This document shows, in pieces, positions 3,115-55,640 of a stretch of DNA of 63,573 nt. The first letter of the stretch is position 1; each line of letters starts with the position of its first letter. The notes under the pieces are model-generated. The model did not search any database, was not told the origin of the DNA, and saw only the letters and a list, made by a program, of their open reading frames with translations. Position numbers and translations under genes: made by a program. Source of the stretch: Candidatus Woesearchaeota archaeon (GTDB lineage: Archaea > Nanobdellota > Nanobdellia > Woesearchaeales > GW2011-AR4); the NCBI GenBank assembly GCA_016184145.1, contig JACPDF010000024.1:1-63573 (forward strand), in the 5' to 3' direction.

Positions 3115-6100
3115 ATGGGAGAGCAAAGCCAACAGGTAGCTGTAGAGGAGAAAAAAGATGGCAGGGCAGGGAAAGGCACAAAGATAAACAGGATTGTGAT
3201 GAACGGCTTCAAGAGCTTTGCGAAGCATACAGAGTTTCTGTTTAATGGCAACTTTAACTGCGTTTTGGGGCCCAATGGCTCGGGAAAAAGCAATGTTCTG
3301 GATGCATTATGCTTTGTTTTGGGAAAGAGCTCTGCAAAATCATTAAGGGCAGAGAAGTCTTCTAACTTGATATACAATGGCGGCAAAGCAAAAAATCCTG
3401 CTAAACAGGGTGAAGTCTCTATTTTCTTCGACAATTCCAATAAGATGTTTCCAACAGAGGATGGGGAAGTTAAAATAACAAGGATAGTGAGGCAGAACGG
3501 GCAAAGCGTGTATAAAATCAATGACGAGACAAGGACAAGGCAGGAAATCCTTGAGTTGCTCGGCATAGCAAGGATAAACCCGGATGCTTACAACATAATC
3601 CTCCAAGGAGACATAATAAAGCTTGTGGAAATGCACCCAAATGAAAGAATGGAGCTTATTGGGGAAATAGCAGGAATTTCAATGTATGAGGAAAAGAAGC
3701 ACAAGGCAGTTTTAGAGCTGGAAAAGGTTGATGAGAGGCTTAAGGAAACAGAGATTGTTTTAGCTGAAAGGAACACTTACCTTAAAGAGCTCAAGAAAGA
3801 CCGCGACCAGGCTTTGAAGTACAAGGACATGAATGAGCGCATCAAGGTAAACAAGGCCTCTTACTCAAAGCTGCAGATAGACAGGAAGGAAAGGGAAAGA
3901 AATGAGCTGCGGCAAAAATTAGAGGAAGCAAACAATGAATTAGAAAAAATCAACAATAAGATAGAGGCGCTAAAAAGCAACAACAGGGAGAAAAGAGAGG
4001 AGATAGACAAAATAACCAAAGAGATAGAGGAAAAAGGGGAAATAGGGCAGGTAAACCTTAACAAGGAAGTTGAGACATTAAAGATAGAGCTCACAAGGAA
4101 GAATTCAAGGACTGATGCCCTTAAAAACGAGCTGGCAAGATTAAGCCAGAGAAGAGGTGATATAAAAGAAGAGACTAAAGAAATAGAGGACAAGATAAAG
4201 CAGCTTGAGGAAGAGAAAGAAGAGATGATGCAGGATATAGAGAAAAAAAAGAAAGAAAGGAACAGCATTGCAAACAGGATAAAAGAGTTCAAGGAAAAGA
4301 ACAAGCTGGATAATGTAGGGGAGATTGAAAAACAAGTGGAGGAGATAGACAAAAAGGCAGAGGAGCTGGAAAAAGAGGTGCACGAGGCAAGGGAAAGGCA
4401 GCACAGCCTGATAAGGGAGAAGGACAGGCTAACGCACGAGGTAGGCACGATAGACGCGCAGATGAGCAAAGTCCTTGACATAGAAAAAGAGCACAAAAAG
4501 CAGCTGCAAGATTTGGAAACCAAGAGGAAAGAGTTTAAAGAGTCTACATTGGAGTTAAACAAGAAGCTTGACGAAGATTCAGGCATGGCTGCGCAGCTCT
4601 CAACCGCAAGAAGAAAAACAAATGCCAAAGAGGAGGAGCTTTCAAAGCTGAAGGCAAGACAAATTTCGGCAAGAGAGCTAAATTATGCTGATGTTGCAAT
4701 AAAAAGGATCCTGGAGCTGAAGAAGAAAAGAGGTGGGATTTACGGGACAGTTGCAGAGTTGGGAAATGTTGACTCAAAATACGCTTTGGCTTTGGAAATT
4801 GCAGCCGGGCCAAAGATAAAAAGCATTGTTGTTGAGGATGACAAGACTGCTTCTGAATGCATCCGCTACCTTAAAGACAATAAATTGGGCGTTGTGACCT
4901 TTTTGCCATTGAATAAGATAAACTCAAAACCAATGGACCCTGAGGCAAAAAAGCTTTCCAAATCAAATGGAAGCCATGGCCTTGCGCTTGATTTGGTTTC
5001 TTTTGACAACAGTTTCAAGAAAGTTTTTGAGTATGTTTTTGCCGACACTATAGTTGTGGACAACATAGATGTTGCCAGAAGATTAGGGATAGGAAATGCA
5101 AAATATGTTACTTTGGATGGCGATTTAGCGGAAAAAAGCGGAGCTATGCATGGCGGCTACAGGCTGAAGAGAAAGCAGAGCATGGGCTTCCAGGAAAAAG
5201 ACATTGCTGAGGAGATTGAAAAGCATGAGCAGGAGCTCAGGGAGCTTAAGAACACAATTGATGTGCTGGAAAAGAGAAGAATAGAGAATGAGGAGCTGAT
5301 TTCAGGATTAAGGGGTAGAAAAGCCGCTTTGGAAGGGGAGATAATAAAGACGGAAAAATCACTTCATCTTGATACTACCGATTTGGATGCATCCAAGGGA
5401 AAAAGGGATACTCTGCAGAAATATGAAGAAGAGGTTGACAGGAAAATAAAATTGGTGCAGGACAAGATTTCTTCCTTAAACAAGGAGCTTGCATTGGTAA
5501 AGACAGAGAAGCAGAAATTAAGGGCGAGCATAGCCCAATTAAGGAATCCTGCCTTATTGGCTGAGCTGAATGCTTTTGAGGAAAAGCACAAGGAGCTTAA
5601 CGAGGAAATCATAAAGATTGACTCTGAGATAAAGGCAAGGGACACGCAGTCAGAGAAAATCTACAAGAGCGAGCTGGAGAAAACAGACAAGATACTAAAG
5701 CAGATAGAGAAAGACGAGCAGGGATTCAACAGGGAAATGCAGCAGCTAATGAATGAAATCAAAAATAAAGAAAATGAGCTGCAAAAAAAAGAGGCTTTAG
5801 CGCAGGATTTCTATGCGAAGTTCAAAGGGCTGTTCAACAAAAGGTCTGAGATAGACAAGGAGATACAGAAGAATGACGGCTTGATCAGCAATAAACAGGA
5901 AGAAAGCAGGAATGTTGAGATTAAGGCCAACACATTATCTTTAAAGCATGCTGAGATACAGGCTGCCCTAGCTGGCCTGGAGCAGGAATTCCAGCAGTAT
6001 GAGGGCGTTAAGCTGGATTTGGAAAAGAATGAGGAACAATTGAGGGGCGAGATAAGCAAATTCGAGAGGATGAGGGAGCAGATTGGAAGCGTCAATATGA

Positions 6101-6695: not shown

Positions 6696-7394
6696 TCATT
6701 TTTTATAGTTAAACCCGTATTTGAACTTGTCAGTTTTAATCTCTCCGAAAAGAAGCCTGTGGAGCCCTGAAAAGAATAATTTTGAGAAGAGATTAAACCT
6801 TCCTTCGCTGTCAAACCTTCTCATGGAAGTGTAGGTCCTTACGCTGCTTAAAATCCTGAATTTCCCGTGTTTTCCCGCTCTCCTTACATAGTCCATGTCT
6901 TCTGACAGCCTTATTTTCTCGTCAAATCCCCTTATTTTTTCATGTACGCTTTTTTTGCAGAAAATCCCGGAGCCTGGGGCGTGGGGATAGAAAAACTGCG
7001 TTGCGTAAATCCAGAAGTTGAAAAGCGCAAACGCAATCTTATCAACAATTCTTTTGCCCAACGGCCACACATAGCAGCCTGCAGCATCAAGATTTTTTCT
7101 TTTTATTTCATCCAGTGATTTCTTTAGAAAATCCTTTCCCATGATGCAATCAGCGTCTATGAAAAACAAAATGCCTCCTTTTGCTGCTTTTGCCCCATTG
7201 TTCCTCGCTATTGGAGGCTTTCCCCCCTTAACAATCCTACATCCATATTTTTTTGCTAGCTGCCTTGTTTTGTCTTTTGAATTATAATCTGCAACTACGA
7301 TTTCATAATCCTTAAAGCTCTGGTTTTTTACAGAATCCAACAATTTTGGGAGGTATTTTTCTTCATTTAGTGTCGGGATGATAATGCTCAGCAT
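6696..7394 (-). CDS. Glycosyltransferase family 2
   Basis: SIIIPTLNEE start, DAD motif, SED motif, TSMRRF. Confidence 0.9.
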   Translation of the reverse strand: MLSIIIPTLNEEKYLPKLLDSVKNQSFKDYEIVVADYNSKDKTRQLAKKYGCRIVKGGKPPIARNNGAKAAKGGILFFIDADCIMGKDFLKKSLDEIKRKNLDAAGCYVWPLGKRIVDKIAFALFNFWIYATQFFYPHAPGSGIFCKKSVHEKIRGFDEKIRLSEDMDYVRRAGKHGKFRILSSVRTYTSMRRFDSEGRFNLFSKLFFSGLHRLLFGEIKTDKFKYGFNYKK

Positions 7395-7434
7395 TTTATT
7401 TTTAGAATTAATGCGCGTTTATAAAAGTAATGAA

Positions 7435-7575
7435 TGCGTCGGCCGGGACAATCGGTACTTTTTCCAAGCACTTTCGAATTTCCGAACAATCCAATTGACT
7501 GCTTCCCGGATAAACGGCTTGGAAGGCCGTTGTCATATAAACGCAACTCCAGTTGTGCCGTTAGACCACCGACGC
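7435..7575 (-). tRNA. tRNA-Gly(TCC) with three non-canonical insertions (D-loop, about 53/54, about 58/59)
   Basis: Acceptor GCGTCGG/CCGACGC+A; anticodon arm ACGGC-CT TCC AA-GCCGT; T stem CCGGG/CCCGG; TTCGA at 7478-7474 isolated between two hairpin-forming inserts. Confidence 0.8.
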
Positions 7576-7639
7576 ATCAAAGGCAAAAGATTGGTAAAAG
7601 GTTTATAAATTTAATTGTTTTATCCAAAATCACGATACC

Positions 7640-8086
7640 ATTGACTATTTTAATTTTAATGATATTGGCAAGGAGCCAAAGATCATAGAATTTCTTAATG
7701 ATATAAGCAATGATAATGACTCTATTGAGCTGAATTTAATAAAGAACAAGGCTTACAAAGAAGCTGTTATAATGTCCCTGCATATTATTAACGAGGAAAG
7801 CGGGATTTTAAAAGAAATTACGAAAGATGAGCAAAAAACCTTTGGCGGAAGCAAACTGTTTTATGTAAATGATAACTTTGACAAAATCCTTGTCATGGCA
7901 GTCAAAGGAAGCATGGATGGAAAGCTCAACATGGTTGTAAACAGGCTAAACAAGATAAATGAGAGGATATACAGGCTAAATACAAAGATAAAAAAGGGTA
8001 ATATGGAAATGTACCTGAAAAGGAAAAGCATAAACGACAAGAAGGATGCTATAGTAAATATGATTAATAAGAATCTTAAAGTCTAG
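7640..8086 (+). CDS. Hypothetical protein (ATT start at 7640 proposed; first ATG at 7772)
   Basis: Frame is open 44 codons upstream of the ATG; TATA TTTATAAA at about 7602-7609 places the transcription start near 7635. Confidence 0.55.
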   Translation: MDYFNFNDIGKEPKIIEFLNDISNDNDSIELNLIKNKAYKEAVIMSLHIINEESGILKEITKDEQKTFGGSKLFYVNDNFDKILVMAVKGSMDGKLNMVVNRLNKINERIYRLNTKIKKGNMEMYLKRKSINDKKDAIVNMINKNLKV

Positions 8087-16032: not shown

Positions 16033-16131
16033 GCCTCTGTAGCTTAGCAGGTAGAGCGTGCGGCTGTTATCTTACTTTTTAGAATTAAGCGAGAAACCGC
16101 AAGGTCGGCAGTTCGAGTCTGCCCAGAGGCG
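16033..16131 (+). tRNA. tRNA-Asn(GTT) with 26-nt canonical intron (16070-16095)
   Basis: GCCTCTG/CAGAGGC acceptor; TGCGG-CT GTT A[intron]A-CCGCA; GGCAG TTCGAGT CTGCC. Confidence 0.92.
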
Positions 16132-16168
16132 TTTTTTCAGAACAATTCCTTGGAATTGAAATTCACTT

Positions 16169-16254
16169 GGGCCTGTAGTTCAGCCTGGTTAGAATGCTCG
16201 ACTGATAAATTTTTGGAAATCGAGTGGTCCTCAGTTCAAATCTGAGCAGGCCCA
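16169..16254 (+). tRNA. tRNA-Ile(GAT) with 11-nt canonical intron (16208-16218)
   Basis: GGGCCTG/CAGGCCC acceptor; CTCGA-CT GAT A[intron]A-TCGAG; CTCAG TTCAAAT CTGAG. Confidence 0.92.
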
Positions 16255-38802: not shown

Positions 38803-39672
38803 ATGGGAAATCCAAAGAAAAATGCTGCAACAGTCGGCATAGCTGGAAACATATTCCTGTTCATAGCAAAGCTTGCAATTGGCTTTGTTTCCAACAGCAT
38901 CGCAATAATATCAGATGCCTTTAACTCATTGACTGATGTTGTAAATTCGATAATACTTTTTTTTAGCGTAAAGGTAGGAAGCAAGTCCGCTGACGAAGAT
39001 CATCCTTTCGGTCATCACCGCTCAGAGCCTCTTGGCGGCCTGATAGTTGCGGTCCTTACAATAGTTCTGGGCTTTGAGATAGCAAGGATAGCAGCAACTA
39101 GACTAATAACAAAAACAGCGCCTATATTCAGCATTCCTGTTGTTTTTATACTGCTTTTAACCATTCTAATTAAATCTTTTATGTACCTTTACACAAGATC
39201 AGCATGGAAGAAGACGAAAAGCACCGCTGTTTTTGTATTGATGGTTGACCACAGGAATGACATATGGATTTCCTCAGGGGCTATAATAGGTTTTCTGGGG
39301 GCAAATTATAACATTGTTTTCCTCGATGCATTGGTTGCGTTTTTTATAGGGATATGGATAATAAAGGTCGGGTTTTCCATAGGCGCAAGAAATGTAAAGT
39401 ACCTCATGGGAGAGGCTCCTAAGCCAGAGCTTGTTGATAAAATCTCAAGAATTGTGTTAAATGTAAATGGGGTAAGAAGCATTCAAAAAATAAAAGCCCA
39501 TTATGTCGGAGTATTATTGCAGGTTGAGGTGCATATAAGGGTAAGCAGGAATATCTCCGTGTATAGGGCGCATACAATAGAGACAAATGCAAGGAAAGCC
39601 ATTGAAAAGCTCAGGGAAGTTGACAGGGCATTTGTGCATGTTGACCCGATAATAAAGTCAAGGCCGCATTAA
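38803..39672 (+). CDS. Cation diffusion facilitator (FieF-like) transporter
   Basis: SDAFNSLTD, DEDHPFGH, DHRND, C-terminal HVDP. Confidence 0.92.
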   Translation: MGNPKKNAATVGIAGNIFLFIAKLAIGFVSNSIAIISDAFNSLTDVVNSIILFFSVKVGSKSADEDHPFGHHRSEPLGGLIVAVLTIVLGFEIARIAATRLITKTAPIFSIPVVFILLLTILIKSFMYLYTRSAWKKTKSTAVFVLMVDHRNDIWISSGAIIGFLGANYNIVFLDALVAFFIGIWIIKVGFSIGARNVKYLMGEAPKPELVDKISRIVLNVNGVRSIQKIKAHYVGVLLQVEVHIRVSRNISVYRAHTIETNARKAIEKLREVDRAFVHVDPIIKSRPH

Positions 39673-40958: not shown

Positions 40959-42167
40959 TTACCCCAAAACCAAAAATCCTGTCAGATAAATGACTAAAAG
41001 GCCTGCTAAAAATCCTGCAACATTTGTCAAGGTGAATAATGAAGTCCATTTTCCTTTTGCCATGTAATGCAAAATATCAAAAGTTACATCAAAAATTGCC
41101 CCTGCGCCTATTGCAAGGAAAAATACTGCCATTACGGGAGAATATGCAAATCCGCCCACAACAGCACCAATTATTGTAGGAGCGCCTGCCAATAATCCCA
41201 TTATGATAAGATGAAAATAGAAGTTACTCACTTGCCTTACAAATCTGGTTAATGGGGCAACAATTGCAACTCCTTCTGTTACATTGTGAATCATAAAGCC
41301 TATTACGAGGGTAGCTCCCAGTGCTATCTCCCCTATAGCATACGCGCTTCCTATAGCAAGCCCTTCCCCTAAATTATGCAATCCAATTCCAAGAGCAATC
41401 AAATAACCGAAAATTAAAGCCTGAAAATGCTCGCCTTTAATTTGCCTGTGGTGCTCTGACTTGTAGCTTATGGCAGACAAAGTGAGGATAGCTAGAGTGA
41501 ACCCAATTATTATAATCCCTATCCCATTATATGCGTTTGGTATCGCTTCCAAAAGGTCGAATGATTCCTCAAGCGCGTCAAATCCCAAGAATGAAAGCAA
41601 GCCTACTGTCAAGGCAAGCAAAAAACTATACCATCTTGCCCTTAGCATTTGCAAAAATGGAAGCCATAACAAGCCAAGCAAAACAGGAATAACACCAACA
41701 TAAATTCCCAGCAAAACAAATGTTTTAAAGTAAAAGAAATTAAATTTAGGAGTCAAAGCTGCTGCCTCAACTTCTTTTTCAAAAGTAACCCCATTCCTTG
41801 ATATCAAAGTTATTTTTTCAAAATCCCCCTCGAGCCAGGGATATGGGATATCAATTTTTGCCTTTTCAAGGGGGTTTAAAGTGTTTTTTGGAGTGATTTC
41901 AAATTGCCAGTAAGCATCATTGACTAAAACTTGGGCTATTGTCACTGGCTCCGGACCATCGTTAAAGACCTCCAAAGTTATATGCTCAGCAGAAAATACT
42001 ACTCTTTGTATAAATGCCTTTTCTAAGGGAACAATATTTGATTTTAAGACTCCAAGAGGTCCAAACTTAAGAAAAAACACCAGCAATATTCCCAATAATA
42101 TAAGAGGCAATAAAGCCTTTGACCAAAATTTTAATTTACTTTGCTGTTCCATTTTACTCAACCTCAA
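40959..42167 (-). CDS. ZIP-family metal transporter with extracellular N-terminal domain
   Basis: IGLHNLGEGLAIG and HNVTEGVAI motifs. Confidence 0.88.
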   Translation of the reverse strand: MRLSKMEQQSKLKFWSKALLPLILLGILLVFFLKFGPLGVLKSNIVPLEKAFIQRVVFSAEHITLEVFNDGPEPVTIAQVLVNDAYWQFEITPKNTLNPLEKAKIDIPYPWLEGDFEKITLISRNGVTFEKEVEAAALTPKFNFFYFKTFVLLGIYVGVIPVLLGLLWLPFLQMLRARWYSFLLALTVGLLSFLGFDALEESFDLLEAIPNAYNGIGIIIIGFTLAILTLSAISYKSEHHRQIKGEHFQALIFGYLIALGIGLHNLGEGLAIGSAYAIGEIALGATLVIGFMIHNVTEGVAIVAPLTRFVRQVSNFYFHLIIMGLLAGAPTIIGAVVGGFAYSPVMAVFFLAIGAGAIFDVTFDILHYMAKGKWTSLFTLTNVAGFLAGLLVIYLTGFLVLG

Positions 42168-47788: not shown

Positions 47789-50584
47789 ATGGAATATGCC
47801 AAAATAAGGGATTTTTTTGTAAAGTACTGGTCGTATTTTCTAGTCCTGATACCAATATTTATCGTCATATACATGAGGATGCAGTCGGCAAACCTTACAA
47901 TCACAGACGACTGGGCAGCCACAAATGTTTACAACTACTACAAGGCATCAATCAAAAGCCAAATAATGCAGCAATACCCGAATATTCCTGAATCCAACTT
48001 AAATTCCCTTGTGGAGCAGGAGTTTGGCAAGTTTGCAAGTGAAAACAAGGAGAATATAAACCAGCAGATAAAAGCAGTTTCCCAGCAATTAAAAGACAAT
48101 TATCAATACGAATCCGGAAGCAAGCGCTACCCCTATATGGGCGACATAGACTCCTATTACTTTTTGAGGCAGGCAAGAAATATAGTTGAAAAATCCCATA
48201 ATTGCGATGTAATTGAGAATGGGATATGCTATGATACATATACCTTGGCTCCGTTAAAAGCAAGGCTGTCACAAACCATACACCCTTATTTCATAGTATA
48301 CCTCTACAAAATAATCAAGCCTTTTAATCCTGACATAACGCTAATGCAGGCTCAGATTTTAGTGCCTACTGTGCTTGCAGTGGCAATTGCAATCATTGTT
48401 TTCTTTATGATGCTAAGGAATTTTAACCTGCTTGCAGCGCTTACAACCTCAATCTTGGTTTCAGTTAATCCTATATTCCTATCAAGAAGCCTTGGGTCTG
48501 ATACGGACATATACAATGTATTCTTTCCGGTTCTGGTGGTATTCCTCATTTTTGAATCGTTTAGATCAGAAAACTTGAAGGCAAAAGCGATTTTTGCTGC
48601 GCTTGCTGGCATTTTCATCGGCGCATATAGCTTTTCCTGGAACGGCTGGTGGTATCTTTTTGACTTTATTATAATAGCAATTATTGCAGATTTCATATTC
48701 AAAACAGCTAAAGAATATATAAAAACGAAAAAATTTGATTTAAGGGAAACAGCAAGAAGCCAAAATGCAATTAGGACATTTTCCATCTTAGCGCCGTTTT
48801 TGATTTTTTCAATGATTGCTGTAAGCCTTATCATTGGCTTTAACTCTGTACTTGAAGCCTATAGGAGCCCTCTTTCCTTCGTTACGGTAAAGGCAGCAGC
48901 ACAACAAAGCTTATGGCCAAATGTCCTGACTACAGTCGCTGAGTTCAACGAAGCATCTATAAATGAAATAATAAAGCAGATGGGAGGAAGAGTGTTTTTC
49001 TTTTTTGCCATGCTTGGATTTGTTCTCCTGTTTTATAAGAAACTCAAGAATATAACAAGCAATATCTTCTTATTCTTAATTTCCATTGGGCTGCTATATT
49101 ATCTTGCAACCAAAAGCGCAACCAGCTCTCTTGCTCCGGTCACCTACATTTTGGTGCTTGGCCTGCCACTTATTTTAGGAATTTATATGGCATTGCGCTC
49201 GGAAGAGGACTTTGATATAAAAACTGCAGTGCTTCTATTTTTATGGGTGTCTGCATCTATTTACGCAGCGACAAAGGGCGTGCGCTTTACCCTGCTTCTG
49301 CTTCCGCCAATTGCCATAGGAATCGGAATTGCTTTTGGATTCCTGCATTCAAAACTGACCCTTTTGCTTGCCAAAGCCCTCAGAATAAAATGGCTGATAA
49401 GCATAGTTATCTTCCTGTTTTTCGCATTTTACCTTATAGAGCCTGTTAAAAATGGAGTTAACATATCCAAACAATACATTCCAAATGTTGACGACCAGTG
49501 GTGGAATGCGTTAACAAAGATAAAGGAAAGCTCCAAGCCGGATGCCATAATAAACTCGTGGTGGGACTTTGGGCACTGGTTTAAGTACATTGCAGACAGG
49601 AGAGTCACGCTTGATGGCTCGTCTCAAAATAATGAGCAGCTCCATTGGCTGGGGAAGCTTCTCCTCACGCCAGATGAAAATGAGGCAAGAGGCATCCTAA
49701 GGATGCTTGATTGCGGAGGGAATAAAGCTTTTAGGGACATAGATAAAAAGAAGGATAATGCCCAAAAATCAATCGAGCTTGTCAATAAGATCATTCTTTT
49801 AAAGAAAAAGGAAGATGTGGAGAAAATGCTTTTAGAAAATGGCTTTTCACAGGCAGAATCAAATGAAATTTTGCAATACAGCCATTGCGAGGCTCCGGAG
49901 AACTTTTTAATAACAAGCGAGGATATGGTGGGAAAAAGCGGCGTATGGTCTCATTTCGGCAGCTGGAATTTTGGCAGGGCCTGGATGCAAAAAACGTTCA
50001 AAAACGCGAAAGAGAAAGAAGAAGTAATTAAAAGTTTCATTGAGCAGTTTGGGTTCTCAAGGGAAGAAGCTGATAGCTATTATTCCCAGCTTGAAAACCT
50101 GAAAACGGAATCTGAAATTAATGCCTGGATAGCCCCTTGGCCGGGTTACGCCCAGGGGGAATCCGGCTGTGAGAACGATAATGGCACGGTAAAATGCGGC
50201 TTTCAAAATGTGGTTGTAGAAATTAACCTGACTACGATGGAAGCCAGAATTCCAACAAGCCAAGGCTATTTAAGGCCGGATGTATTTGGCTACACAACCC
50301 CAGATAGTGTTGAGATAAAGGATTATTCCGAGAACACCATAGGCATAGGAATGGTGCTGATGATAACAAAAGACAGCTATACAAGCATTTTCATGTCGCC
50401 GCAGCTTGTAAACAGCACATTTACAAAGCTATATTATCTTGACGGCCACGGCACATCGTACTTTGAGCCTTTTCACAGCAGCACGGGCTTTAACGGCTTC
50501 AGCATTAAAATATGGAAAGTCAACTGGGAAGGAAGAGAAAATAGGCTGATTGCTGACAGGTTTAATGCAGCCAAATTTAGCTGA
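47789..50584 (+). CDS. aglB: Oligosaccharyltransferase AglB/STT3
   Basis: DSYY, DTD, TVAE and WWDFG motifs; many transmembrane segments. Confidence 0.93.
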   Translation: MEYAKIRDFFVKYWSYFLVLIPIFIVIYMRMQSANLTITDDWAATNVYNYYKASIKSQIMQQYPNIPESNLNSLVEQEFGKFASENKENINQQIKAVSQQLKDNYQYESGSKRYPYMGDIDSYYFLRQARNIVEKSHNCDVIENGICYDTYTLAPLKARLSQTIHPYFIVYLYKIIKPFNPDITLMQAQILVPTVLAVAIAIIVFFMMLRNFNLLAALTTSILVSVNPIFLSRSLGSDTDIYNVFFPVLVVFLIFESFRSENLKAKAIFAALAGIFIGAYSFSWNGWWYLFDFIIIAIIADFIFKTAKEYIKTKKFDLRETARSQNAIRTFSILAPFLIFSMIAVSLIIGFNSVLEAYRSPLSFVTVKAAAQQSLWPNVLTTVAEFNEASINEIIKQMGGRVFFFFAMLGFVLLFYKKLKNITSNIFLFLISIGLLYYLATKSATSSLAPVTYILVLGLPLILGIYMALRSEEDFDIKTAVLLFLWVSASIYAATKGVRFTLLLLPPIAIGIGIAFGFLHSKLTLLLAKALRIKWLISIVIFLFFAFYLIEPVKNGVNISKQYIPNVDDQWWNALTKIKESSKPDAIINSWWDFGHWFKYIADRRVTLDGSSQNNEQLHWLGKLLLTPDENEARGILRMLDCGGNKAFRDIDKKKDNAQKSIELVNKIILLKKKEDVEKMLLENGFSQAESNEILQYSHCEAPENFLITSEDMVGKSGVWSHFGSWNFGRAWMQKTFKNAKEKEEVIKSFIEQFGFSREEADSYYSQLENLKTESEINAWIAPWPGYAQGESGCENDNGTVKCGFQNVVVEINLTTMEARIPTSQGYLRPDVFGYTTPDSVEIKDYSENTIGIGMVLMITKDSYTSIFMSPQLVNSTFTKLYYLDGHGTSYFEPFHSSTGFNGFSIKIWKVNWEGRENRLIADRFNAAKFS

Positions 50585-50603: not shown

Positions 50604-51362
50604 TTAAAAACTAATATGCCTTTCTCTCAGCTTATCAACACAATAATCTGCTATTGTTTTTAAGTTTATTACATCTTCCTCATTATATTCCACTAATAAT
50701 TTTAAATAATAATCGTCTCCTGTTGCGCGGTACATCCTCCATAATGCCAGGGCATCTCCGCCATAGAATCCTTCTATTATTTTGTTTCTTTCGATGCCTA
50801 ATTTTTTCTCTATTTCTTTTAAGCCGCCTTTAAGGTTTAACTTGTTAGTTATGGATTTGACATCGAAGTTTGGAATATTTGGCAATAAATGAGGATATAG
50901 TCTATTAATGAATGGAACATCAAAACTTGATCCGTTGAATGTTACGATTAATTTATATTTGCTTAATTCATTTTTTAATTCTTTTAAATCAAAATTGATG
51001 CCTTTAATCATTGTTTTTGTCTCTATGCCGTCAAACAACCCGATAACAGTAATGTCATCATTATTCCTGTCCAATCCTGTTGTTTCGATGTCAAGAAAAA
51101 CAGCTTCGTCCTTGAAAAAATCATACAGCCTGTAATACTCTGCCTGAGGCAGTATTTTTTTAAAGTAAGAGGAATCCTGGCTATAGAGCGCCTTTCTTGC
51201 CTGCAGGATTTTCCTGTCGTAGTATATTTTTCTTCTTTTGCTTATTCCACCGATTTTTTGTGCATTAAGGAAAGAGTCCCAGTCCTTGATTCCCTGCTTC
51301 CATAAATTTTCCTCTAAGCCTCTTTTTACCCTTTCAAGGAAAAGGAAAGTGTTTTGGATCAT
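50604..51362 (-). CDS. YprB-like RNase H-fold exonuclease
   Basis: FLDIETTGL, VTFNGSSFDVPF, GGLK.IE, YNEEDV. Confidence 0.85.
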   Translation of the reverse strand: MIQNTFLFLERVKRGLEENLWKQGIKDWDSFLNAQKIGGISKRRKIYYDRKILQARKALYSQDSSYFKKILPQAEYYRLYDFFKDEAVFLDIETTGLDRNNDDITVIGLFDGIETKTMIKGINFDLKELKNELSKYKLIVTFNGSSFDVPFINRLYPHLLPNIPNFDVKSITNKLNLKGGLKEIEKKLGIERNKIIEGFYGGDALALWRMYRATGDDYYLKLLVEYNEEDVINLKTIADYCVDKLRERHISF

Positions 51363-51522
51363 TATTGGGAAAGTTTTTTATAATGGATTTAAAATTAAAA
51401 TAATTGTCCTGTCAAGTCGACCTATGCGGCCTTTTTTTCTTTTATTTTATAAACCATTTATTTATAAACCTGACGCGGGAATGTCCAGTGCAATATAAAC
51501 AGATGTCCAGTGGGAAAGATTC

Positions 51523-51574
51523 ACATAACACTTGCTTTTTACAAACATAAATGTTCGCAAAAAGCGTGTTAGGC
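51523..51574 (+). mobile_element. attC-like recombination site (left)
   Basis: ACATAAC...GTTAGGC core sites around an imperfect palindrome whose mismatches become G-T pairs on the bottom strand; 52 nt is slightly short for attC. Confidence 0.5.
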
Positions 51575-51647
51575 AAACATTTGCGGACACCAAGAATGCT
51601 TTTGTCTTCGTCTAATCTCTGTAGATTAAGCAAACTTTTTAGGGAAA

Positions 51648-51905
51648 TCAATCATAAACTCTTGAGCGCTTATCTACTTTGACTACAATGAGCTTGTTTG
51701 GATTGTATCTCACAATGTAAAGAATTCGTTGGTCTCCAACTCTTACTCTGAAAACTTTCTCGCCTTTAAAATCTTCAACTCTTTCAATGTCCTGTGGAAA
51801 AGGATTTTCTTCTAGCTTTTCAATTTTTTCGCGAATTCGTTCTCCACCGTATTTCTTGATATATTTCGCAGCCTTATTAGAGAATTCTGCTGGAAAATTA
51901 ACCAT
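51648..51905 (-). CDS. relE: RelE/ParE-family toxin
   Basis: IREKIEKLEENPFP, FRVRVGDQRILY, VDKRSRVY. Confidence 0.9.
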   Translation of the reverse strand: MVNFPAEFSNKAAKYIKKYGGERIREKIEKLEENPFPQDIERVEDFKGEKVFRVRVGDQRILYIVRYNPNKLIVVKVDKRSRVYD

Positions 51906-51906
51906 C

Positions 51907-52092
51907 TTAACCAAATACTTGCTTTTTGCTTAGAAGTTTTCCTTCTCTTTCTTCTTTAAGTGCTTCTGCCAATGCCTTTTTATCGTCTTCACTTAGTTTT
52001 GTGTCTTCAATGTATTCCATTATGTAATCAACTTTCTTTTCCACGCTTGCTAATTTGCTGAGTATTTGTTTTTCAAATGTTGTTTCACTCAT
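51907..52092 (-). CDS. Antitoxin (archaeal RelB-like)
   Basis: Small acidic ORF directly upstream of relE; LSEDDKKALAEALKEEREGKLLS pattern; own TATA. Confidence 0.75.
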   Translation of the reverse strand: MSETTFEKQILSKLASVEKKVDYIMEYIEDTKLSEDDKKALAEALKEEREGKLLSKKQVFG

Positions 52093-52244
52093 TGTAGTCA
52101 AACAATATACGTTTTAGTATAAAAATATATCGCTAGATTTCCCTAAAAAGTACGACAAAAGCATTCTTGGTGTCCGCAAATGTCTGCGCTCACGAATTTC
52201 ATTCGTTCGCTTGGTGGAATTTCCGCTTCGCTTCAATTCCACTC

Positions 52245-52324
52245 GCCTAACACTCGCAAGGCAAACTTTTTCTCGCTTCGCTCAAAAAAGTCTCGAGTGC
52301 TTCAAAATTTTTTCAACGTTATGC
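52245..52324 (+). mobile_element. attC-like recombination site (right, degenerate)
   Basis: GCCTAAC...GTTATGC with central hairpin containing GCTTCGC; GCCTAAC is the exact complement of the left GTTAGGC; L boxes poorly formed. Confidence 0.45.
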
Positions 52325-52379
52325 GAACTTTTCAAAAACTAAGAGAATATTTTTAAAGTCATTTGTATTATCTTTCATT

Positions 52380-52652
52380 ATGGCTGCCATATTAGGCACA
52401 AGATATGCTGAAACAAAGGAAAGATTAAGGGAAGCAATAAGAAATGGCACCATAAGCGTGTTAGAAATTGAAGTGGGAAATTTCTCTTCGTACTTCACTC
52501 TAAAGCCTATAAAAGAAAATCCAATAATGCTTGTCGAGATTGATGAAAATGGAACTAGGAAGTATTTTATATCCAGAGAAGAATATGGAGCATGCTGTCC
52601 TAACAATGAGAGACTGCTGAGATTTTACAAAGGAAGCAGCTCAATAAATTAG
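52380..52652 (+). CDS. Hypothetical protein (orphan)
   Basis: 90-aa ORF with upstream TATA-like TTTTAAAG, starting 55 nt after the right attC-like site. Confidence 0.5.
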   Translation: MAAILGTRYAETKERLREAIRNGTISVLEIEVGNFSSYFTLKPIKENPIMLVEIDENGTRKYFISREEYGACCPNNERLLRFYKGSSSIN

Positions 52653-52653
52653 G

Positions 52654-53076
52654 CTATTTCTCCGGAACAATAATCCAGGCAATTATGTATGCAATGATTG
52701 CTGCTCCGAAGCTTAAGAATACCAATAATACCCATACGAGCCTTACGACTGTTGGATCTATTTCCAGATACTCGCCTATTCCTCCGCATACTCCTGCTAT
52801 AATGCGGTTTTTCCTGCTCCTGAACAATCTTTTGCCCTTAAATGATTTTTCCTTTGCCAATTTAGCACCTCTGGATCTTGACAAGATGAAATACAATAAG
52901 GCGCCAAGCACGTTAAGTAACACTATAACAACCAACCACAATAATTTTTCAGGAACATTTAACCTTGATGACAGGCAATGCACTATTGCCCAAATCCACA
53001 AAATAAACAATAATAATACCAATAACAAAACAAATACGATTGCCCATAAGGGAAATAATATGAGAGGAGATACCAT
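52654..53076 (-). CDS. PLDc_N plus PspC domain membrane protein
   Basis: WIWAIVHC...KLLW...LGALLY; LFRSRKNRIIAGVCGGIGEYLEIDPTVVRL. Confidence 0.88.
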   Translation of the reverse strand: MVSPLILFPLWAIVFVLLLVLLLFILWIWAIVHCLSSRLNVPEKLLWLVVIVLLNVLGALLYFILSRSRGAKLAKEKSFKGKRLFRSRKNRIIAGVCGGIGEYLEIDPTVVRLVWVLLVFLSFGAAIIAYIIAWIIVPEK

Positions 53077-54566: not shown

Positions 54567-55640
54567 TCAGAATTCTGTAAGCTTCTTTGTCTTGGTAGAG
54601 TATTTTACTATTGTTGTGTTGCCGTCCTTGCCACCAGAAGTCTTCTTGACATTTATGAACTTGTTTTTCTCTAATTTCTCAATCTTTCTCTGGAAACTCT
54701 TGTAAACTAATTTGCCTCCCTTTTCCTGGTACATTGCAAAAAGGTCGCCAATCTTTTTCTCGGAGTTGTTCTTTATTATGCTTAATATGGATTGCTCGTC
54801 CTCTGTCAGGTCAGTGCTTTTTTTTATTGTAAACTTGTCGGCTTTTTTCATGGCTTCTTCTGCATGCTGCAATGTTATTTTTCTTGAGGATTTGTCCTCT
54901 GCTATGTTTGCCGCTTCCCTCATCAGATACAAACCAGCCCTCATATCCCCTGATTCTGCTGTCTTTTTTACTACGAGCTCAAAAGCGTCTTTTTCCCATA
55001 CACCCGGAACAAATGCATATTCAATCCTCTGCTTAAGAATATCGCGGGTTTCTTCGAGATTGTAAGGCCTGAACTCAAGGGTTTCTGACATCAACCTGGA
55101 CTTGACGCGGTCATCGAGGTCATCAAACCAATCAGAATAATTCGTTATCAATATTACAGATTTCCTGTATATTTCCTCAAGGACAGAGTAAAGAAAATCA
55201 TACTCTTCTAATTTATCGACTTCGTCAAAAGCAAAGACAACCGCTTTCTTGTTTGCTATTGTTTTTATTACATCAAAAAGCTCTTCTGTCCTCTTGTTGT
55301 GGGTCAATTTATAGCCGAGCTGTTCGCATATGTCCACTATAATCTTGAAAGTCGTGTTTTTCTGCCAGCAGTTTATGTATATAGGCATCACATCCTCTGT
55401 TTCATCCTCCAATTCATTAATAACATGCCTTATGGCAGCAGTCTTTCCTATTCCAGGAGCGCCAAAAACAAATACATTCCTTCCATTTTTTCCCATCAGC
55501 AGGGGCCTTATGGATGCGGCTATGTATCTTTGCTGATTCTCGCGGTGAGGCAATAATTTTGGCAGGAAAGAATAATCTAACGCAACCTCATTCTTGAAAA
55601 GGGATTCATCTGAACCGAGCATGTCCTTGAATAAAGCCAT
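54567..55640 (-). CDS. cdc6: Orc1/Cdc6-family AAA+ protein
   Basis: P.LLPHRE, GAPGIGKT, YINC, DEVD, RVKSRL, F.PY, GDMR. Confidence 0.9.
   Translation of the reverse strand: MALFKDMLGSDESLFKNEVALDYSFLPKLLPHRENQQRYIAASIRPLLMGKNGRNVFVFGAPGIGKTAAIRHVINELEDETEDVMPIYINCWQKNTTFKIIVDICEQLGYKLTHNKRTEELFDVIKTIANKKAVVFAFDEVDKLEEYDFLYSVLEEIYRKSVILITNYSDWFDDLDDRVKSRLMSETLEFRPYNLEETRDILKQRIEYAFVPGVWEKDAFELVVKKTAESGDMRAGLYLMREAANIAEDKSSRKITLQHAEEAMKKADKFTIKKSTDLTEDEQSILSIIKNNSEKKIGDLFAMYQEKGGKLVYKSFQRKIEKLEKNKFINVKKTSGGKDGNTTIVKYSTKTKKLTEF

Follow-up and report, generated by a model that had tools for sequence, protein, structure and literature searches.

The stretch of archaeal DNA analysed here (the window, 63,573 nt) is contig C17 of G000, a metagenome-assembled genome (MAG) from groundwater Woesearchaeota of 1.02 Mb in 38 contigs with ~38% G+C; the assembly is 96.8% complete, and its being a MAG is a caveat. 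Between a gene for an RNase-H-fold protein and pspC, the window carries an inserted 750-bp unit that holds an inverted toxin-antitoxin (TA) gene pair and lies inside a folded palindromic site. An original prediction, made from the sequence, had taken this unit for a cassette of an integron, solitary or part of a minimal cluster of attC sites lacking an integron integrase (CALIN). The comparisons below retain the cassette and point, with moderate confidence, to a different class of recombinase. Contigs are denoted by C-numbers (of G000 unless another genome is named), extracted loci by L-numbers, and the comparison set comprised 61 family genomes, among which G001 and G002 are congeneric with G000, G009 belongs to another genus, and G004 and G005 to two other genera. 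The features of the locus are as follows.

51569-52318, no strand: inserted 750-bp unit (cassette) with a GTTA core at each border (51568-51571 and 52318-52321)
51515-51582 (about), plus strand: hybrid dif-like hairpin site with left arm GAAAGATTCACATAA, a ~44-nt stem-loop, the exchange point G/TTA and the foreign right arm TTAGGCAAAC
52319-52333, plus strand: displaced right arm of the chromosomal hairpin site, TTATGCGAACTTTTC, directly after GTTA
51573-51649, plus strand: right extended arm (clamp) of the unit's own site, made of a 34-nt inverted-repeat arm (51573-51606), a 27-nt extra hairpin piece and a 16-nt inverted-repeat arm (51634-51649)
52136-52187, plus strand: left extended arm (clamp) of the unit's own site, made of a 16-nt inverted-repeat arm (52136-52151) and a 34-nt inverted-repeat arm (52154-52187)
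52188-52318, plus strand: structured centre of the unit's own site, with three hairpins, GCCTAAC at 52245 (R''), GCAAGGCA at 52256 (L'') and GCTTCGC at 52225 and 52275
51648-51914, minus strand: toxin gene of the ParE/RelE superfamily, 88 aa, Pfam PF05016
51907-52101, minus strand: putative antitoxin gene, 64 aa, an open reading frame (ORF) call upstream of the toxin gene and overlapping its start by 8 nt
52118-52130, minus strand: A/T-rich TATA-like stretch upstream of the TA operon, read from the sequence
51458-51513, plus strand: slot-marking motif, TATA-like TTTATAAA, then CTGACGCG, then direct ATGTCCAGTG repeats at 51481 and 51503, pointing at the hairpin site
52380-52652, plus strand: orphan ORF, 90 aa, lying after the displaced arm and before the pspC stop codon
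50604-51362, minus strand: RNase-H-fold gene, left neighbour of the unit
52654-53076, minus strand: pspC, a PspC-domain gene, right neighbour of the unit

The toxin matches the Pfam ParE_toxin family (PF05016) with an E-value of 3.7e-7 and 31.1 bits (cut-off 23), and its 64-aa partner has no Pfam family above cut-off. Homologues of the toxin with the same partner were found in G001 (82% nucleotide identity, on another contig), G004 and G005, the small ORF being conserved upstream of the toxin homologue in the latter two; a further copy, 84% identical, stands at L125 behind a similar hybrid site. The predicted toxin domain and the small, overlapping upstream partner give the pair the layout of a type II TA system. 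Both genes are on the minus strand, in agreement with the inverted orientation claimed at the outset, and the TATA-like stretch at 52118-52130 is the likely TA promoter. Separately, the final toxin codons and the beginning (5' end) of the antitoxin gene form a 22-nt inverted repeat (86%; 51671-51692 and 52088-52109); it is missing from the G001 homologue, and because both arms fall within the likely transcript, the TA mRNA could close on itself.

The proposed junctions, at 51568 and 52318, are the only two places in 51440-52400 with GTTA, and it is exactly there that independent copies of each flanking module depart from the window. The unit begins with TTAGGC at 51569 and carries GCCTAAC at 52245-52251, so that circularisation (52318 joined to 51569) would set GCCTAAC against a complementary GTTAGGC, as the original prediction had proposed, and GCGAAGC is indeed present on the bottom strand of the right region (GCTTCGC on the top strand), along with several hairpins. 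Its two repeat arms match at 97% over 34 nt (51573-51606 and 52154-52187) and perfectly over 16 nt (51634-51649 and 52136-52151). When the circle junction was built in silico (52136-52318 followed by 51569-51649), it folded into one very large hairpin of -72 to -74 kcal/mol, in which the two repeats form the stem and 52188-52318 the structured tip. The 34-nt repeat is best read as the two arms of the unit's palindromic site, parted when the circle opened at G/TTA, and the unit appears to be bounded by terminal inverted repeats (TIRs) because such an opening sends the arms of the site to opposite ends. A TIR transposon, the fallback offered with the prediction, was rejected: there is no target duplication beside the 34-nt repeat, and the repeat is explained by the circular-junction fold. 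The 27-nt extra piece of the right clamp holds an arm-like TTAAGCAAAC at 51626, and positions 51607-51641 have 91% identity with the right-hand portion of a site of 85 nt that lies close to xerA in G020.

The left junction lies in a second imperfect palindrome, which folds better on the bottom strand (-14.1 kcal/mol, against -11.4 to -12.5 kcal/mol for the top strand; DNA parameters), as had been anticipated. This site is evidently no chance palindrome, because BLAST and R1, a covariance model built from four copies of the left-site family, find four strong copies in G000 (C11:1967-2031, C17:51519-51582, C16:4613-4674 and C27:41179-41240; R1 scores of 70.7-86.9 bits, with 81.1 bits for the window copy) and R1 has matches in 21 of the 61 family genomes (E<=0.001). 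The matches are few per genome, dispersed and never arrayed; a weak copy lies at C8:64903-64982. Intact copies read AAAAG-nn-CGCATAAC, a ~40-nt stem-loop with a 2-nt bulge, and then GTTATGCG-nn-CTTTT, and these 60-nt hairpins have no unpaired central spacer. The copies on C11 (1967-2031) and C16 (4613-4674) are intact and finish with TTATGCGCACTTTT and TTATACGAACTTTT, respectively; a strict regular expression for intact palindromes recovered these two and no others.

Inspection of the window copy shows that it follows the family up to ...GCGTGTTA and then switches to GGCAAACATTT. Other hybrids are broken at the same GTTA on C27, G001:C6 and G006:C26, continuing with (C/A)ATGTTCGTGAGTGTCGC. In the window, the arm that would complete the palindrome is found on the far side of the unit, where the displaced arm at 52319-52333 matches the C11 and C16 right arms at 13/14 positions and C26:7774-7788 at 15/15. 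Joining 51511-51568 to this arm in silico restores the palindrome, improves bottom-strand folding from -14.1 to -20.1 kcal/mol and gives a z-score of -8.9 relative to shuffled sequences.

The unit's own site is also a member of a family. Positions 52183-52317 (135 nt) are 99% identical to a segment of G009:C9, in which ~95 further nt come before ...CGCCTTGCTCTGTAC-GTTATGCGAAC; the same query gave no nucleotide match with the housekeeping genes of G009. A scan of the genome contigs with the last 18 nt of the site returned 15 loci, all in MAGs of the same group. The structured part is present in 14 of them (four cut by contig ends), L116 having the pattern only. All 15 are conserved up to ...GTACGTTA and then pass into at least 11 different arm-like continuations, of which that at L106, GGCAAACATTTG, is the same as the left end of the window unit. 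The consensus fold of their alignment (A3) has an R box of TAAC and GTTA, unpaired letters, a 7-bp L box of GCAAGGC and GCCTTGC, and inner hairpins; R box, unpaired spacer and L box are found in 9/9 full-length or near full-length relatives. L102 has an internal deletion that differs from that of the window copy. Covariation was set aside as proof of folding, the copies being too similar.

Parts of 51300-52700 are present as contigs in 20 public runs, and the contigs of four (X5, X6, X8 and X12) were compared in detail. In X5, a contig of 941 nt that spans 51300-51674 shows one difference and has the same left junction; another, of 2082 nt, matches 52316-52700 without a difference and has the L' and spacer letters of the full-length site in front of 52316. 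Four runs from three studies have contigs that go on beyond 52315-52317 with the ~95-nt segment. In contigs of two runs, from two studies, 51638/51639 is joined to 52145/52147 with 4-7 letters between, a joint that reads as a gene-less hairpin of both clamps. No joint skipping 51569-52318 and no circle junction occurs in the contigs of X5, X6, X8 and X12, a result that is uninformative either way because contigs drop rare forms. The window copy may itself no longer excise, the second half of its own site having been lost.

The arms of these sites (AAAAGnnCGCATAA and TTATGCGnnCTTTT) are those of classical dif-like sites with a 6-nt spacer that lie upstream of xerA in relatives, and the AAAAG and CTTTT flanks are common to the xerA-upstream sites and the hairpin family. 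At type-1 xerA loci, a site with ...GTTCGTATAA-type arms is found upstream of the gene in 9/9 cases examined, with the right arm TTAT(G/A)CGAAC or a variant of it; G001, for example, has ...AAAAGTGCATATAA-TGCATA-TTATGCGAACTTTTTT followed by a TATA box. Two type-1 contigs begin inside the site, and in G020 a small ORF separates it from the gene, ~385 nt downstream. Within this arm family, sites with 6-nt spacers were found upstream of xerA in G001, G004 and G020, at C27:39470-39500 in G000, and at L124 and L126. The two sites of the window have dif-type arms, but their spacers measure ~44 nt and >120 nt. At a syntenic position, G000 has the short-spacer site (C27:39470-39500) and G001 the 60-nt hairpin version.

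The unit's right arm, TTAGGCAAACATTTGCGGAC, was found at four other loci, and in 4/4 it is joined at G/TTAGGC to a different left partner: 6-nt-spacer sites at L124 (AAAGTTCGCCTAA-CGTGTG) and L126 (AAAGTTCGTGAAA-CGTCTG), a 60-nt hairpin palindrome at L125 and a long structured site at L127. Because one arm joins each of them at G/TTAGGC, the short, hairpin and long sites all appear to exchange at a single point, G/TTA. Comparison places this point, in L124 and L126, at the boundary of spacer and right arm, and strand exchange would thus occur at the spacer/arm boundary. Archaeal dif sites consist of two inverted repeats around a 6-nt spacer (PMC2958812 and PMC8371274, in the sections available), with cleavage at the spacer ends (PMC8371274, likewise). 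A strict dif-like regular expression gave 4 matches against 0-3 in Markov controls and missed the C27 site. A conserved non-coding element of ~230 nt follows the TTAGGCAAACATTTGCGGAC arm at L124-L127 and is also present at C2:13789-13600 in G000 and upstream of xerA in L098, L099 and G020; it ends in a C-rich run (CCACCCGCCGCCACTC...CCCACCACCCACCC) that also occurs near xerA genes.

The motif at 51458-51513 marks the start of the variable DNA in the window, and likewise on G000:C16, in G001 and in G002. Its general form, TTTATAAA-c-CTCACGCG-nnn-ATGTCCAGTG, has ~17 copies in G000 and many in the family genomes; TGTCCAGTG occurs 25 times in G000 against ~5 expected, and ATGTCCAGTG is often doubled or part of face-to-face motif pairs. 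Copies in G000 stand at C2:5991, C4:14338, C4:31810, C8:64825/64897, C11:14360, C13:5752, C16:3395/3427, C21:41415, C24:23602/23623, C26:22054 and C37:36267/36287. The motif is oriented toward a hairpin site in the window, at C8:64897, and in G001, G004, G006 and G008. In tandem form, CACTGG(A/C)CA, it also lies just upstream of the TATA box in 7/8 genes of a second, type-2 class of XerA-like recombinases (see below), often with a hairpin site beyond it, where several contigs start. The motif could serve as a promoter of slot content, as a recombinase binding site, or as both.

What follows the motif differs between relatives. In G001, the RNaseH-pspC slot contains, after the motif, two palindromes (the first a hairpin site) with three plus-strand genes of the AHSA1, SnoaL and OmdA families between them; the slot of G002 is empty, its motif reaching directly to the pspC stop codon. 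(In the latter locus, L014, stretches resembling tRNA pieces, e.g. GGATTTGAACCC, were noticed by eye at ~2230-2420, between the RNase-H-fold gene and the motif.) A slot on C16 of G000 (3395-5389) has a RelE-type TA pair and a 151-aa ORF between a face-to-face motif pair and a hairpin site, and the same slot in G001 (L078) has an AbrB/PIN (VapBC-type) TA pair and lacks the 221-aa ORF that lies beyond the site in G000. Homologues of the ParE-type TA pair stand between dif-like sites directly beside xerA in G004, together with a Kazal-domain gene, and in G005, together with an HNH gene. Two further modules of G000 are bracketed in the same manner. On C26 (7105-7788), a 166-aa ORF (7192-7692) lies between the left arm AAAAAGCCCGCATAAC, which overlaps the end of a Fic-domain gene, and the right arm GTTATGCGAACTTTT; the module has an inner inverted repeat of its own, GTGGGCAAAAAC, and the syntenic contig of G001 ends at a hairpin site. 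On C27 (39470-41240), two membrane-protein genes lie in 1.7 kb of DNA that has the short dif-like site (39470-39500) on one side and a hybrid hairpin site (41179-41240) on the other, and G001 has a hairpin site at the first of these positions and then different DNA. By sequence comparison, such sites enclose the same module at more than one place. The orphan ORF at 52380 is found in the RNaseH-pspC slot of neither G001 nor G002 and has no site of its own; it has no homologue in 60 relatives (E<=1e-5) and a sub-threshold Pfam match only, and it may be older slot content.

Farther from the unit, the window carries archaeal genes for STT3/AglB (47789-50584) and Orc1/Cdc6 (54567-55640), and two tRNAs (16033-16254) are its sole matches to Rfam at gathering thresholds. 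An unrelated ~100-nt repeat containing TCGCTTCGCTCGGGTTAGCAGCTTCG has two near-identical copies in G000, at C9:33207 and C11:20654.

Because tyrosine recombinases (PF00589) have no match in the G000 assembly, the enzyme acting on these sites must be deduced from relatives; the absence of an integrase from the window, noted in the original prediction, extends to the whole assembly. PF00589 genes are present in 54/61 family genomes, which carry two to four Xer-like paralogues. Four recombinases of 269-273 aa were scanned, and the best model for each was NF040815 (XerA_Arch): the two of type 1 score 252.7 and 270.5 bits, above the cut-off of 220, and the two of type 2 score 208.8 and 210.4 bits, just below it. 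The type-2 clade has at least 65% mutual identity and occurs in 8/61 genomes. Searches of G000 for resolvases (PF00239), IS110 transposases (PF01548) and TnpB (PF07282) were negative or sub-threshold. In the relatives, many xerA-like genes lie 50-350 nt from a contig end, and some contigs begin inside a site (L100, L101, L118 and others), which suggests that xerA loci break assemblies.

Taken together, we favour, with moderate confidence, a reading in which the unit is an Xer-run, integron-like mobile TA cassette in a dif-type hairpin site and stands outside the family of integron integrases (IntI) and attC sites. The 750-bp cassette would consist of a self-expressed ParE/RelE-type TA pair and its own large palindromic site. 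The resident site would have had the dif-type arms AAAGnnCRCATAA and TTATGCGAACTTTT, with the 6-nt spacer replaced by a ~44-nt stem-loop, in a slot just downstream of the TATA...ATGTCCAGTG motif, between the RNase-H-fold gene and pspC. A circular form of the cassette would recombine with this site by strand exchange at G/TTA, and once the circle had opened there, its long right arm would lie leftmost in the insert, with its left arm and structured centre remaining at the right end. The enzyme would most likely be a XerA-family tyrosine recombinase acting in trans and not assembled in G000. Sites with long spacers probably work in single-stranded, folded form, imitating the dif core as attC and the attP of phage CTX do. 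The partner sites have unrelated centres and no more than GTTA in common, which makes the classical exchange in two steps over an overlap of 6-8 bp unlikely. A better fit would be a single exchange on folded strands that replication then completes, as happens in integrons and phage CTX. The probable role of the TA pair is to stabilise the slot, unless it simply persists as an addictive passenger. The sequences themselves show the anatomy of the unit, where its junctions lie, how the sites are related, that cassettes are replaced between relatives, that such sites adjoin xerA-like genes and that IntI is lacking; the recombinase, the folding of single strands, the direction and timing of insertion and the role of the TA pair are what we infer in this scheme.

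Several observations weigh against this reading. An exact empty site, that is, the intact palindrome without the TA unit, was not found at the locus in any genome, and by manual count the left outer arm fits the displaced arm (12/15 positions) just slightly better than the arm now adjoining it (10/15). The right site of the window lacks the L' box and spacer that 9/9 aligned relatives have kept, and given the missing L' half the window copy cannot be shown to be mobile. We know of no Xer enzyme that recombines hairpin sites with spacers of 44 to >120 nt as duplex DNA, and their folding as single strands is argued by analogy only. The long-site copies are too alike for covariation, a compensatory change being seen in 2/41 predicted pairs. 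A degenerate arm-pair scan of G000 for short dif-like sites gave 86 matches against 68-109 in shuffled controls. To these are added the lack of a recombinase gene in the assembly, the presence of hairpin-acting Y1 (IS200-type) transposases in G000 and 36/61 relatives, and a comparison set in which the unpublished G012 is counted.

The integron deserves the closest comparison. Integrons are the textbook gene-capture machine of bacteria, and their integrase is thought to derive from Xer-type recombinases. A true integron cassette, solitary or in a minimal CALIN, could have been recombined at attC sites by an IntI supplied in trans from another cell or an unassembled element. The core boxes are canonical, GCCTAAC and GTTAGGC fitting the complementary R'' (RYYYAAC) and R' (GTTRRRY) boxes, and the divergence of module copies at G/TTA supports a crossover at G/TT of the R' box; the GCATAAC and GTTATGC of the hairpin family are one position off the R-box consensus. 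The bottom strand folds better, and in the fold of the full-length relatives an unpaired spacer separates the R box from the L box. This much of the predicted attC-like layout stands, but the window's own right site is without the L' box and spacer, and the 60-nt hairpins are without an unpaired central spacer. The arms also exceed the 7-nt boxes of attC sites and equal those of the 6-nt-spacer dif-like sites beside xerA. The prediction of a solitary cassette or CALIN is borne out insofar as the locus is a slot that holds other cassettes in relatives; the sites, however, are single and scattered round the chromosome rather than arrayed. The recombinase searches speak against an IntI: the IntI model TIGR02249 (cut-off 265 bits) has no match in G000 and none above cut-off in the 61 family genomes. 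The four scanned recombinases reach 187-233 bits in two stretches, and the partial matches cover model positions 1-181 and 232-315 only, skipping 182-231, so that the IntI-specific insertion is absent. Published archaeal IntIs carry an additional domain, according to the available portion of PMC9668308. The same portion reports archaeal integrons that are mostly CALINs and in which TA cassettes are common, and its Data S1 includes Woesearchaeales genomes with 2-12 attCs and 0 IntIs; attC calls made by IntegronFinder in such genomes may be the same kind of site as described here. On this evidence a discrete TA unit inserted at G/TTA within a folded palindromic site is retained from the original prediction, while its movement by an IntI is unlikely.

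Three other explanations bear on the enzyme or on mobility itself. The dif-like arms might be incidental or serve another protein, and the unit might be moved by an unrecognised recombinase family or by a type-2 paralogue for which the TGTCCAGTG motif is the real site. The coincidence of this motif with the start of variable DNA, its tandem form directly upstream of 7/8 type-2 genes, often with a hairpin site, and the two to four Xer-like paralogues per family genome speak for such an enzyme; with the negative searches for resolvase, IS110 and TnpB, and with type-2 enzymes that are themselves XerA-like by NF040815 and so make this a variant of the reading we favour, we regard it as quite unlikely. 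Distinctly improbable, in our view, is a passenger resembling palindrome-associated transposable elements (PATEs), inserted 3' of GTTA without target duplication by an IS200/IS605-type Y1 (HUH) transposase. G000 does have a Y1_Tnp gene (C22:8123-8476, E 1.2e-20; L084 1405-1902, minus strand) and a fragment (C6:13851-14039), the ends of the unit are rich in hairpins, and the GTTA that precedes the insert on the left and the one that closes it on the right resemble the cleavage words of such elements. Yet the hairpins flanking the Y1 gene are unrelated, BLAST of 51400-52400 against G000 gave no match on C22, and related cassettes adjoin xerA, not Y1 genes. The unit's left end (TTAGGCAAACATTT) and right flank (TTATGCGAACTTTT) are moreover alike and both arm-like, which argues for reciprocal exchange of two like sites rather than insertion beside a 4-nt word, and the flanks of 15/15 long-site copies are arm-like, not random.

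The possibility that nothing here is mobile, the TA operon being flanked by regulatory or terminator palindromes and the genome differences being ordinary deletions, would account for our having seen neither empty site nor circular form; TA operators are often palindromic, and the inverted repeat at 51671-51692 and 52088-52109 lies within the likely transcript. Against precise, recurrent G/TTA breakpoints in 15 + 4 independent loci, different cassettes in the same slots of congeners, 99% site identity across genera and contigs of relatives that start exactly inside sites, we consider it very improbable.

If an Xer-run cassette is the correct reading, it may be one of many. More tentatively than for the unit itself, we propose that Woesearchaeota, and perhaps DPANN archaea more widely, have a dispersed 'Xer-integron' in which XerA paralogues take up and swap cassettes at many chromosomal slots marked by TATA...TGTCCAGTG and a dif-derived site, duplex dif-like sites and fold-back mimics being interchangeable through a single exchange at G/TTA; the cassette of the window would probably be one member of this system, in a decayed state. 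Its behaviour is that of integron cassettes, with precise insertion at G/TTA, replacement in fixed slots and near-identical sites across genera, whereas the arms are of the dif type and XerA-like enzymes are the only recombinases around. Such a system would stand between Xer/dif dimer resolution and the IntI/attC integron, either as a living intermediate or as a convergent twin, and the integrase-less attC clusters published for Woesearchaeales may then be sites of an Xer-type system. Confirmation would explain how very small, host-dependent archaea trade accessory genes (TA pairs, nucleases, regulators), would make archaeal CALINs without an integrase worth re-examining, and would make available a simple recombination system in which one protein acts on structured DNA sites. 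A literature search, mostly without subscription journals, found no description of Xer-run cassettes in DPANN archaea and no described system that links Xer-type recombinases and integrons.

The proposed system shares features with several known ones. PATEs and other IS200-IS605 derivatives are likewise non-autonomous, hairpin-rich units that insert without target duplication, and G000 has a Y1 transposase; the window unit differs in the reciprocal exchange of like arms at both junctions, in its long terminal inverted repeat, and in being dissimilar to the ends of the element to which the Y1 gene on C22 belongs. Integrative mobile elements exploiting Xer (IMEX), such as phage CTX, use XerCD at dif by way of a folded single-stranded attP. 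They too exploit a housekeeping-type Xer, with a folded strand that mimics the dif core and a single exchange at the spacer boundary that needs no long homology. IMEX are phages and genomic islands at the sole chromosomal dif, whereas the cassettes described here are of 0.6-1.7 kb, occupy many slots and have dedicated Xer paralogues beside some of their sites. The words IMEX and DPANN are absent from the available part of a 2021 review of the field (PMC8371274). Dimer resolution by archaeal XerA at dif (Cortez et al. 2010, PMC2958812; PMC8371274; both in the sections available) has in common with the present sites recombinases that fit the XerA model and inverted arms of ~10-11 nt around a 6-nt spacer. 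Published archaeal dif sites number one per genome, that of Thermococcales not being beside xerA and having no cargo genes (same sections), in contrast to the many sites found here, some of them with hairpin spacers, that flank accessory genes.

The pdif (dif) modules of Acinetobacter are small gene modules, TA pairs included, with Xer-type sites at their borders; their movement is ascribed to the host Xer, and a replicon can hold several dif-like sites (PMC6449649, PMC13141974, PMC7399989 and PMC12907356, in their accessible parts). They are bacterial, plasmid-borne and bordered by paired, inverted 28-bp XerC/XerD sites (same parts), whereas the cassettes of Woesearchaeota lie on an archaeal chromosome, would depend on a single type of XerA, have long hairpin spacers at many of their sites and carry one large palindromic site per unit. 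With integron cassettes, including those of archaea (Ghaly et al. 2022, PMC9668308, in its available portion), the likeness extends to small, mostly promoter-less or self-expressed cassettes that often carry TA pairs, to imperfectly palindromic sites in which one strand folds better and of which the long ones have R box, spacer and L box, to a crossover at G/TT that leaves the last letters of the site with the neighbour, and to slots with exchangeable content. The system of Woesearchaeota is set apart from integrons by the lack of an extra-domain IntI in 61 genomes, by dif-type arms much longer than 7 nt, by duplex-type sites with 6-nt spacers that join in the same exchanges, and by slots that are single and scattered instead of forming an array next to an integrase.

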